A DNA stretch of 64,000 bases, from contig CAVDXX010000002.1 in assembly GCA_963613175.1 (NCBI GenBank), forward strand, positions 19,005 through 83,004, read 5' to 3'. This DNA comes from a bacterium. GTDB lineage: Bacteria; Patescibacteriota; Saccharimonadia; Saccharimonadales; Saccharimonadaceae. Every line of letters starts with the position of its first letter. Within the stretch, counting starts at the first letter, position 1. The notes beneath the pieces were generated by a model. The model worked only from the letters and a program-made list of their open reading frames with translations, was not told the DNA's origin and searched no databases. Below are positions 41,628-44,084 of this stretch, in pieces. A program made the position numbers and the translations under genes.

Positions 41628-44084
41628 ATGACGAAAAATTTGGTGATTGTGGAGAGCCCGGCGAAGGCGAAAACGATCGAGAAATATCTCGGGGCGGATT
41701 TTCGAGTGCTGGCGTCGGTTGGACATATCCGAAAAGATACAAAAGTCGATAAAACTACTTTTGATGTGACTTATGAGATTGACCCGGGACACAAACAGAT
41801 TATTTCGGAGTTAAAAAAGGCAGCGAAGGATGCGGAGCAGATTTGGCTCGCAACTGATGAGGACCGCGAGGGAGAGTCAATTTCGTGGCACTTATGCGAA
41901 GTATTGAACTTGCCGAAAGACACGGCGCGGATTACTTTTCACGAAATTACCAAACCGGCGCTCGAGAACGCGATTAAAAATCCACGGACGGTAGATATGG
42001 ATATGGTGGCAAGTCAGCAGGCGCGTCAGACGCTAGATATGCTGGTGGGATATGATTTGTCGGACATTGTGCGACGAAAAGTCCCTGGAGCGGTGTCGGC
42101 AGGGCGAGTTCAGAGTCCGGCGCTAAGACTGATTGTCGAGCGTGAGAAAAAGATTGAACAATTTGAAAGTAAATTTGATTTTAAAGTTAATGGCCGATTC
42201 ACATCAACCGGCGAAACTGGTGTAATTCCGGAAAATTCCGATCTCAATTTCGTCGCAAAAGGCGAGGTGGTGGTTTTTGATGGATTTTTGAAGGTTTATG
42301 GCAAAAGTAAGGATTCTGAGTTGCCGAAAATGGCAAAAGGTGAGCGTGTCCAACTCGAGGGGTTGAGTGCGAAGCAGAACTTTGCTAAACCGCCAGCGCG
42401 ATATACTGAGGGGTCGCTGGTGAAAAAGCTGGAAGAACTCGGAATCGGACGGCCGTCGACTTACGCCTCGATTATGACCGCGATTCAGGCGCGAGGTTAT
42501 GTCGTCAAGGGGGAATCAGAGGGCGAAAAACGCGAAGTGGCGGTCTATACGGTGGGCGATCCGGGAACAAAAACAGGAAGGATCGATGACGATACAGAAA
42601 ATGAGACTTTAGAAGAACAGGGAGCCGAACTTACGCCCGAAACAGACGGGGCGCAAACTTTTGTGGCGAATTTTGGTGGGGAAGCGCCAAAAGAGGAGAC
42701 GGAAGCGGAAAAATTATTAACAGATTTAACAGAGGCGGAATTCGTAGTAACAGAGGTGGAAGAAAAAGAAGGCTCAAAAGCCAATCCAACACCATTCACG
42801 ACTGCAGCCTTACAGATCGAGGCAAATGCGAAACTTGGTTTTTCGTCGCGGACAACAATGAGCGCGGCGCAAGGACTGTATCAGGCCGGTCTGATTACTT
42901 ACCACCGAACCGATTCTCTGAATTTATCGTCACAAGCAGTGGCGGCGATTGCTGGGTTTATTGAAGCGAATTTTGGGAAAAATTATCTGAAAGTGCGACA
43001 TTTCAAAACGAAAGACGCTTCGGCGCAAGAAGCGCACGAAGCGATTCGGCCGACAAATGTTCAAACCACAGTTGCAGGGAAGAATAATTATGAAAAACGA
43101 CTTTATCAGCTAATCTGGTCGCGAACGGTGGCGACGCAGATGGCGAACGCAAAAGTGGCAAAAACTACGGTGAAAATCGGGGTTAATACAAGCGCAGACA
43201 ACGGCTCCGAAAAATCCGCGAAAAATGCTCTAGATACGGGGGTGAAACGCGAAATTGTCAGTGAAAAATTCGGAGCAAACAAGGGGAAATTAGTGCCGAC
43301 GCCGATCGGGGAATTGGTTTCGGGGTTTTTGACCGAAAATTTCCAAAATATTGTTGATTATCGGTTTACGGCGAATATTGAGAAGGATTTGGATTTGGTA
43401 GCGGACGCAAAATTGGAGCGAGTGAAGATGCTACGAGATTTCTATGGACCGTTTCATGATACGGTTTTGGCCGCCAATGGGGTGGAGCGATACAATAATG
43501 CGAGGCTGCTCGGTCATGACCCGGAAACCGGCAAACCGATCTATGCGAAAATTGGTAAAAATGGCGGATTTATCCAACTCGGCGGGAACGAGAAAGAAAC
43601 AGGGGAAAAACCGCGTTTTGCGCCATTGCCGAAGCGAAAATCAGTAAAAACCGTGAGTCTAGAGCAAGCTTTAGGACAGCTCGCGTTGCCAGCTTTGCCG
43701 CGATCACTCGGGAAAGCGCCGGATGGAACGGAAATCATCGCGGCGAACGGACCATTTGGGCCGTATCTTAAGAGTGGAAAATACAATATTCCGATGAAAG
43801 AGTTAGATCCTTATACGGTTAGCTTAGAAGAAGCTCTGCCACTTTATCAGGCGAAAATTGATTCAATCATTGCGGATTGGGGCGAAATTATGATTATCAA
43901 TGGAGCTTATGGACCTTATGTAAAGGGCCCGGGACGACGTAATAACGTCAAAATCCCGAAAGAGACCGATCCGAAAACGGTAACACTGGCGCAGGCGGAA
44001 GAGATGTTAAAAAATAAGCCGAAAACTACTCGTCGGGGGACGCGGGGGCGGGGAAAAACTAAAAAGAAGAGCTCAAAAAAGTAG
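41628..44084 (+). CDS. topA: DNA topoisomerase I (type IA) with non-canonical order of conserved segments
   Basis: Toprim [31 protein letters not shown] at 42441-42473. Active-site [10 protein letters not shown] (Tyr codon 42900-42902). [10 protein letters not shown]. C-terminal GPYLK/GPYVK repeats. Lys-rich tail. Confidence 0.85.
   Translation: [818 protein letters not shown]

Follow-up and report, generated by a model that had tools for sequence, protein, structure and literature searches.

A topoisomerase I of Saccharimonadaceae with its conserved blocks in the permuted order A-C-B-D

The topA gene in a 64,000-nucleotide stretch of a Saccharimonadaceae genome (assembly GCA_963613175.1, contig CAVDXX010000002.1; the whole analyzed stretch is referred to here as the window) encodes a bacterial topoisomerase I (TopA) whose conserved blocks run in the order A-C-B-D in place of the canonical A-B-C-D. 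The altered order is real, and we put the probability at roughly 80% that the product is a functional housekeeping TopA whose parts are joined in a different order. The coding sequence occupies positions 41628..44084 of the + strand (818 codons and a stop codon), within an unbroken open reading frame (ORF; 41580-44084, +) that reaches upstream to a GTG at 41580. The ATG at 41628, which gives a protein of 818 amino acids (aa), is the likely start because the N-termini of homologues begin there.

Profile searches place the protein in the bacterial TopA family. In Pfam it matches Toprim (PF01751, E = 2.2e-19), Topoisom_bac (PF01131, 343.2 bits against a cut-off of 35.1) and, in three stretches at its C-terminus, Toprim_C_rpt (PF13368), and it scores 570.9 bits against the NCBIfam model topA_bact (TIGR01051), for which the curated cut-off is 456.4. 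The earlier note on this DNA, made from the sequence alone, had allowed that a full-length profile alignment might prove to be colinear; the matches to PF01131 and TIGR01051 each fall in four separate stretches and are not colinear. All the defining features of a bacterial TopA that we tested are present in the window protein except a colinear domain order. Additionally, the ORF list and a BLASTP block map bear out the view that the frame is continuous and that every catalytic motif occurs in it once.

Colinearity was tested with phmmer alignments of the window protein to TopA chains in the PDB. Against Mycobacterium smegmatis TopA (6pcm), residues 3-192 align to chain positions 18-226, residues 205-295 to 450-551, residues 356-526 to 273-448 and residues 554-715 to 554-733; that is, the fourth canonical block stands ahead of the active-site block, as the earlier note had read it. 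The same non-colinear pattern is seen against Streptococcus mutans TopA (6ozw). The close canonical relative P0084, used as a control, is colinear with 6ozw, its residues 2-461 matching 40-524 in one stretch and 499-560 then matching 531-592. BLASTP matches the window protein to P0084 block by block, with window residues 1-195 corresponding to P0084 1-195 (block A, 89% identity), 208-304 to 377-473 (block C, 83.5%), 340-517 to 194-370 (block B, 76%) and 526-818 to 468-760 (block D, 84%). The canonical domain order D1 - D4(N) - D2(N) - D3 - D2(C) - D4(C) is thus not that of the window TopA in the 6pcm and 6ozw alignments. Nor is this a circular permutation, since A-C-B-D is not a rotation of A-B-C-D: the terminal blocks A and D are unchanged, and the internal blocks B and C have been exchanged. 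The proposal of a segment-swapped, non-circular permutation of domains II-IV therefore holds, with the window protein non-colinear, P0084 colinear and 71 sequences in the same order (see below). The positions on which it was built are also right, with N207 at 42246, G295 at 42510-42512, the start of the FVANF block (residue 345) at 42660, the Tyr codon of Y425 at 42900-42902 and L555 at 43290.

The blocks and the junctions between them are laid out along the gene as follows.

41628..42212, + strand: block A (residues 1-195), aligned to 6pcm 18-226
42213..42248, + strand: junction loop J0 (residues 196-207), a new turn leading from domain II strand 1 directly to strand 5
42249..42539, + strand: block C (residues 208-304), aligned to 6pcm 450-551
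42540..42653, + strand: linker J1 (residues 305-342, acidic), from wing strand 1 to the start of block B
42654..43178, + strand: block B (residues 343-517), the relocated module, aligned to 6pcm 273-448
43179..43247, + strand: linker J2 (residues 518-540), from the end of block B to wing strand 2
43248..44081, + strand: block D (residues 541-818), aligned to 6pcm 554-733

Block A holds domain I, which is the Toprim domain (E9 and D77-x-D79-x-E81), together with the N-terminal portion of domain IV (GRVQS, EREKxIE) and the first of the long domain II strands (FDFKVNGRF). Block C contains the strands of lower domain II, the hinge motif PPARYTE, the helix-turn-helix (HTH; GIGRPSTYA..RGYV) of domain IV and the first strand of the wing hairpin. 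The relocated block B comprises the strands and helix of upper domain II along with domain III in its entirety, including Y425-HRTDS and QEAHEAIRP, and block D supplies wing strand 2, the remainder of domain IV and a C-terminal domain with three Toprim_C_rpt repeats and a basic tail. The assignment of upper domain II and all of domain III to block B, and of lower domain II to block C, follows from the E. coli domain limits, which we take to be 214-278 and 405-472 for domain II and 279-404 for domain III.

The breakpoints were mapped through the P0084 / E. coli alignment (chain numbering minus 2). The first lies in the first hairpin turn of domain II (E. coli ~229-232), the second in the turn after the strand that leaves domain III (~416-419) and the third at the tip of the 'wing', the domain IV hairpin located after RGYV (~511-519). 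J0 marks the site at which block B is inserted in canonical enzymes, and no counterpart of J1 was found in canonical TopA in the alignments to 6pcm, 6ozw and P0084. The linkers described in the earlier note are indeed present between the blocks, and we refine them to three hypervariable junction loops, which in permuted homologues measure 14-67 aa (J0), 8-36 aa (J1) and 10-51 aa (J2). On these alignments, the rearrangement is best seen, in its simplest description, as the hop of an inserted domain (~E. coli 233-416), which left the hairpin tip in domain II for that of the domain IV wing. In permuted proteins, J0 closes off the hairpin of domain II; their wing is open at the tip, where it receives block B via J1 and J2. 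The wing hairpin of canonical Saccharibacteria TopA is already ~31 residues longer than in solved structures. Judged by the spacing of flanking motifs, a similarly long wing insert is present in about one quarter of the representatives of the 150 nearest clusters (P0123-P0130, for example) and in none of the solved structures.

An unusual order in the contig of an uncultured organism could be an artefact of assembly or binning, and the earlier note had itself pointed to a chimeric contig as a possibility. Recurrence in many assemblies excludes this for practical purposes, and we give it next to no weight. Among the best 120 protein hits (90%-identity clusters, all >1320 bits), 68 clusters are permuted and 52 canonical, and the permuted matches derive from many independent samples and assemblers (NCBI, ENA, Logan and JGI assemblies, in contigs of up to 171 kb). 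The same three junction positions are found in all 71 permuted sequences. Furthermore, three GTDB species representatives (L001, L002 and L006, the last partial) carry the permuted order, the reading frame is intact, and all blocks are under purifying selection. The other GTDB representatives in the range L003-L014, including a 'Candidatus Nanosyncoccus sp.', are canonical.

The related contigs come from sheep gut metagenome-assembled genomes (MAGs) and from other metagenome and MAG assemblies, and the closest proteins with a named source are labelled Candidatus Saccharibacteria or Saccharimonadaceae. Farther out, the permuted order occurs in 0 of the 150 representatives of the nearest 50%-identity clusters, 145 having the order A-B-C-D and the others being fragments; P0121, a canonical protein of 70% identity, represents the 50% cluster to which the window protein belongs. 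Judged from these sequences, the arrangement is conserved and clade-restricted, being found in dozens of related gut and rumen genomes. No fixed residue separates permuted from canonical proteins perfectly, and the best two positions, both in the lower domain II strands of block C, are nearly diagnostic (L versus C and K versus R, each ~90% in permuted versus canonical). The comparison with TopA of related genomes that the earlier note had called for thus yielded the same permuted order in 71 sequences as well as close canonical relatives; the note had missed that the arrangement is restricted to a clade, that very close canonical relatives exist and that relatives carry in-frame palindromic repeats at the same loops (described below). 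Two close homologues, P0026 and P0104, are labelled 'hypothetical' in their annotation, and profile-based annotation sometimes gives that label to these permuted TopA proteins.

The window topA is under strong purifying selection. Compared with L001, the ratio of nonsynonymous to synonymous substitution rates (dN/dS) is 0.035 overall (dS ~1.2, with synonymous sites near saturation) and 0.020, 0.006, 0.029 and 0.020 in blocks A, C, B and D, respectively; the linkers are relaxed, at 0.15 for J1 and ~1.0 for J2. Residues E9, D77, D79, E81, R160, Y425, R427 and H470 are invariant, Y425, R427 and H470 in 69 permuted and in 142 mixed sequences, and within the domain III motifs (I/L)TY.RTDS and QEAHEAIRP, residues Y425, R427, T428, D429 and H470 are invariant across the 142 sequences. 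Such conservation is hard to reconcile with a decaying or non-catalytic paralogue whose work is done by a canonical topA elsewhere in the genome, an explanation that we regard as very improbable. A point that counts against our reading, and in favor of a paralogue, is that only 64 kb of the genome is in view; no second type IA gene was found in this window, which says nothing about the remainder. However, the gene holds the conserved dprA-topA-sigma/HARE locus, which is the site of the canonical gene in relatives, and a scan of the GTDB genome collection returned one topA locus per genome, using narrow peptide patterns from the window protein that reached close relatives only. The gene order phoH-pth-dprA(-)-topA-sigma/HARE-T4CP (T4CP, type IV coupling protein) is common to genomes with the permuted and with the canonical gene, and because this neighborhood is shared, we take the window topA to be the orthologue and not an extra copy. 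The immediate neighbors of topA in the window are listed here.

36400-37875: der
37973-39619: PIN-PhoH
39685-40218: pth
40250-41230, - strand: dprA
44350-45381: sigma70_r4/HARE-HTH protein
45488-48433: TrwB-like coupling protein (T4CP; TrwB/DUF87-like ATPase, 981 aa)

The neighbors are housekeeping genes, with ftsW, mraY and genes for penicillin-binding proteins farther downstream of topA. The sigma70_r4 + HARE-HTH protein and the T4CP that follow topA form a tightly conserved pair, at 72-96% identity across these genomes, and the TrwB/DUF87-like coupling ATPase has a long tail rich in Lys, Pro and Thr. In the largest canonical clade (~51 clusters; L023 and L031) the downstream neighbors are obg, trmD and recG, where the permuted genomes and other canonical ones have sigma/HARE and T4CP instead. 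These downstream differences indicate that rearrangement around topA also separates these lineages.

The structure of the window TopA was predicted with AlphaFold2 (AF2). A first run with only the 68 permuted homologues gave a poor model (predicted local distance difference test score (pLDDT) 62, predicted template-modelling score (pTM) 0.38) owing to the shallow alignment, and it was replaced. The second alignment combined 41 permuted and 100 diverse canonical sequences, with MAFFT used to align blocks A, B and D and with block C gapped in the canonical rows and left to the permuted ones. The resulting model has a mean pLDDT of 90.7 and a pTM of 0.85; confidence is low only in J1 (residues 315-339, pLDDT <50), J2 (~521-539, pLDDT 62-75) and the C-terminal tail, and J0 is modelled with high confidence (pLDDT 93-94). 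A Foldseek search of the PDB gives target-normalised template-modelling (TM) scores of 0.71-0.73 to the E. coli 67K fragment (1cy0, 1cy2, 1ecl), the superposition on 1ECL that the earlier note had suggested, and 0.69 to Thermotoga maritima TopA. Foldseek aligns sequentially and so cannot place B and C together; because A+C+D could cover at most ~0.66 of the target, the score requires that block B (domain III) superpose along with A and D. The model therefore predicts a closed toroid with the lid in its canonical position relative to A and D. Weighing against this picture, the AF2 alignment for A, B and D was mostly canonical and may bias the model toward canonical packing.

In canonical TopA the domain II hairpin carries at its tip the lid, made up of upper domain II and domain III with the active-site Tyr. 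In the window TopA, this hairpin is closed by J0 and the lid has moved to the tip of the domain IV wing through J1 and J2, with the modules predicted to pack into the usual toroid. Ordinary TopA function is expected because the protein has all that the standard type IA cycle requires: Tyr425 would cut one strand, the gate between domains I and III would open, a strand would pass, and religation would follow, with relaxation of negative supercoils. Both catalytic activity and unchanged gate mechanics are inferred. In M. tuberculosis topoisomerase I, the hinge region between D2 and D4 spans P506-L526 and contains R516 (PMC12889582). By its position in the PDB alignments, the Arg of PPARY is most likely the counterpart of R516. 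The PPARYTE hinge motif stays contiguous with its neighbors in block C, and the connections between D2 and D3 are retained within block B; the differences are the altered link within domain II and the new, flexible tethers to domain IV.

These tethers leave room for an enzyme that is functional but mechanically altered, with the covalent connection between upper and lower domain II severed and the lid suspended from domain IV by flexible linkers of 8-50 residues. In such an enzyme the gate may open differently, whether wider, for longer or at the interface within domain II, and this could shift activity toward decatenation or unknotting or alter regulation. We consider this reading unlikely. 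The prediction shows J1 and J2 as disordered or flexible, both evolve fast, and the recipient site is a domain IV insertion that is loosely comparable to the decatenation loop of topoisomerase III. Decatenation loops and other domain IV insertions, together with domain II hinge sequences, are thought to tune the time for which the gate is open (PMC9960139). The L/C and K/R differences in block C (~90%) could reflect co-adaptation to such a change. On the other hand, the AF2 model is confident and toroid-like, the hinge motif and the D2-D3 connections are preserved within C and B as described, and sequence conservation of the four blocks is close to that seen among canonical relatives, all of which counts against altered mechanics.

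The same three loops at which the permuted gene is joined often carry, in canonical as well as permuted relatives, inserts of 25-45 aa that are rich in G, A, P, S and R and that recur between loops and proteins. At the DNA level, these inserts are palindromic elements with terminal inverted repeats (one example has a fold z = -3.5), and the multi-copy elements in the topA genes of relatives always lie at the three breakpoint loops. The following loci carry more than one copy.

L024 (canonical), 3018-3119 and 3666-3767: two direct copies, in frame, 99% identical over 102 nt, 648 nt apart, flanking block B
L008 (canonical), 7130-7213 and 7523-7606: two direct copies, 89% identical over 84 nt, 393 nt apart, flanking block C
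L023 (canonical), 10401-10502, 11025-11096 and 11400-11492: copies at all three loops
L025 (permuted), 9641-9730 and 10025-10120: two copies, at J0 and J1

In L023, two full copies in opposite orientation occupy the first domain II turn and the wing, and a partial copy lies at the second turn. Because 99% identical direct repeats bracket the catalytic module in L024, that topA is poised for in-frame deletion or excision of the module. Elements of the same two families are also found in the window, within four other genes.

9008-9083: element in gatA (ORF 8204-9739)
11150-11295: element in gatB (ORF 10158-11705)
36872-36980: element in der (ORF 36400-37875), not significantly palindromic (z = +0.9)
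61278-61365: element in priA (ORF 60933-62945)

The window elements are GC-rich and in frame, and three of them are strongly palindromic (DNA fold z -3.9, -6.9 and -7.9). Overall, the elements are palindromic, multi-copy and in frame, occur in either orientation, and have DNA fold z-scores of -3.5 to -7.9. In this behavior they resemble the Rickettsia palindromic elements (RPEs), repeats similar to miniature inverted-repeat transposable elements (MITE-like) that are inserted in frame into protein-coding genes (PMC10969869): they are palindromic multi-copy sequences of ~84-150 nt that lie, in frame and in either orientation, within surface loops of proteins with housekeeping roles (TopA in relatives; GatA, GatB, Der and PriA in the window). 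Unlike RPEs, they reside in a different host phylum, and here they may have supplied the homology for a domain rearrangement within a gene. A full-text search of the literature, incomplete in its coverage, found nothing on in-frame palindromic elements in Saccharibacteria. We know of no report of an intragenic domain rearrangement driven by RPEs.

The coincidence of the breakpoints with loops that repeatedly carry elements in relatives suggests that the permutation may have arisen by recombination between in-frame repeats at the three loops. An ancestor of the form A-R-B-R-C-R-D, with R a repeat, would give A-R-C-R-B-R-D if B were excised and then reintegrated at the third repeat; an unequal crossover followed by two deletions would be an alternative route. 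Several results weigh against this account of the origin. J0, J1 and J2 of the window have no element match by nhmmer and no palindrome, and a search for direct or inverted repeats inside the window topA gave chance-level matches only. Among the other permuted loci, the search for element remnants returned one weak match, at J0 of L028 (E = 1). A duplicated intermediate was not found, the search for a two-copy form with block B alone as the query returning fragments only (<=306 aa). Finally, the element sites at the breakpoints could merely mark the only surface loops that are permissive. Among the fragments, P0284, P0291, P0304 and P0306 (181-290 aa) consist of a domain III-like Topoisom_bac segment only, lie on contigs of 158-617 kb from unrelated organisms, and could be split or fragmentary topA genes.

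We give a nearly even chance to an origin by ordinary illegitimate rearrangement or duplication-deletion, to which the elements would be unrelated and in which the loops merely tolerate insertions. The window junctions lack an element signature, most permuted homologues have short junction loops without detectable elements, and the elements also occur in genes as unrelated as gatA, gatB, der and priA. Set against this are the in-frame direct repeats of 84-102 nt that exactly flank B or C in canonical relatives and the presence of elements at all three loops in both architectures. Additionally, some junction loops may be elements with an internal deletion, for example J1 of P0106 (ATPDSAPDDVTAF) beside the element peptide STGPDSA...SPIDVTPF, although the likeness is weak.

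Whether the permutation arose once is addressed by neighbor-joining (NJ) trees, which have short internal branches and for which the TopA blocks were put back into canonical order. One origin can be argued from the fact that all permuted genes share their junctions. However, the permuted genes do not form one clade in trees of either the TopA blocks or the flanking genes, which weighs against a simple vertical history from a single origin, and such a history is not established. The TopA-block tree is star-like (internal branches 0.001-0.007) and the permuted sequences are monophyletic in 0 of 60 bootstraps, with 4-9 parsimony changes of architecture against ~26 for random labels. The tree of the flanking sigma/HARE and T4CP genes has at least three permuted groups, with three groups in 88 of 100 bootstraps. 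When equal numbers of columns are resampled, B+C requires 5.5 ± 2.0 changes and A+D 10.8 ± 1.7, so that B+C tracks the architecture better. This difference fits one origin with recombination of the flanks, and is also compatible with a recurrent repeat-mediated origin or with low resolution. The fullest version of the repeat-mediated account, in which the lid was moved by homologous recombination between RPE-like repeats, perhaps more than once or with spread of the allele between species, and in which the enzymes work without a continuous domain II arch, is one that we hold only tentatively and judge rather doubtful as a whole.

Two further features of the window lie outside the coding sequence of topA. 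A candidate novel structured RNA of ~320 nt (41255-41575, + strand) sits between dprA and topA, with a consensus sigma-70 promoter at 41224-41252 (12/12 matches), a perfect 14-bp hairpin and T-run at 41526-41572, and a fold z-score of -6.35. Its DNA identity is 84-98% across 14 Saccharibacteria loci; the adjacent DprA is 57-66% identical in most of those loci and 91% in the closest two, L001 and L006. RNAalifold predicts 84 pairs, 11 of them with compensatory changes, and searches returned no Rfam match at E <= 1 and no call as a transfer-messenger RNA or tRNA. In L025 the RNA lies beside dprA and topA is 5 kb away, so that it is probably a separate RNA gene and not a leader of topA. Elsewhere in the window, a SAM (S-adenosylmethionine) riboswitch (RF00162, 59.2 bits) at 21768-21862 lies immediately upstream of ORF 21858-22820, the predicted N-terminus of which looks like that of MetK.

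Compared with canonical TopA (TIGR01051; 6pcm, 5d5h, 1ecl, 2gai, 6ozw), the window enzyme has all the same domains and catalytic motifs. The closest canonical type is the mycobacterial one, with a Toprim_C_rpt C-terminal domain, and the repeats of the window protein are of this type. It is also like canonical enzymes in its predicted toroid (TM 0.71-0.73 to the E. coli 67K fragment) and in occupying the same locus as orthologues that are 76-89% identical per block. Unlike them, it has the order A-C-B-D, a lid placed in the domain IV wing hairpin, three new junction loops and a domain II arch in which the continuity of the chain is broken. The decatenation loop of topoisomerase III is likewise a lineage-specific domain IV insertion in a type IA enzyme and has been discussed as modulating gate opening (PMC9960139); whereas that loop is short, here an entire catalytic module has been inserted.

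Proteins known to be naturally permuted, such as the DNA methyltransferases and the saposin/swaposin pair, are circular permutations, for which a duplication-deletion model has been proposed. The window TopA is like them in that homologous segments are reordered and the fold is retained (as predicted here), and duplication-deletion is a possible route. It is unlike them in that an inserted domain has been transferred to a different hairpin tip, and the enzyme concerned is essential and conserved universally. The earlier note knew of no described example of a permuted type IA topoisomerase, and our full-text search, the coverage of which was incomplete, likewise found none.

All cellular life has type IA topoisomerases, the domain order of which has been treated as invariant. 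Models of gate opening rest on hinges in a continuous domain II arch (PMC9960139, PMC12889582). The permuted TopA is a naturally occurring variant, maintained by selection, with a lid tied to domain IV and an arch split into two parts, and nearly identical canonical relatives are available for comparison, which makes it a ready-made test of which covalent connections strand passage needs. Few non-circular permutations have been documented in an essential enzyme, and this one, a domain hop, is such a case; the ancestral form survives in sister lineages, and a candidate molecular cause, in-frame palindromic repeats at the breakpoints, is open to direct examination. If the full repeat-mediated account is true, selfish in-frame repeats would be able to rewire the topology of a protein, and the covalent continuity of the arch would be dispensable for strand passage.

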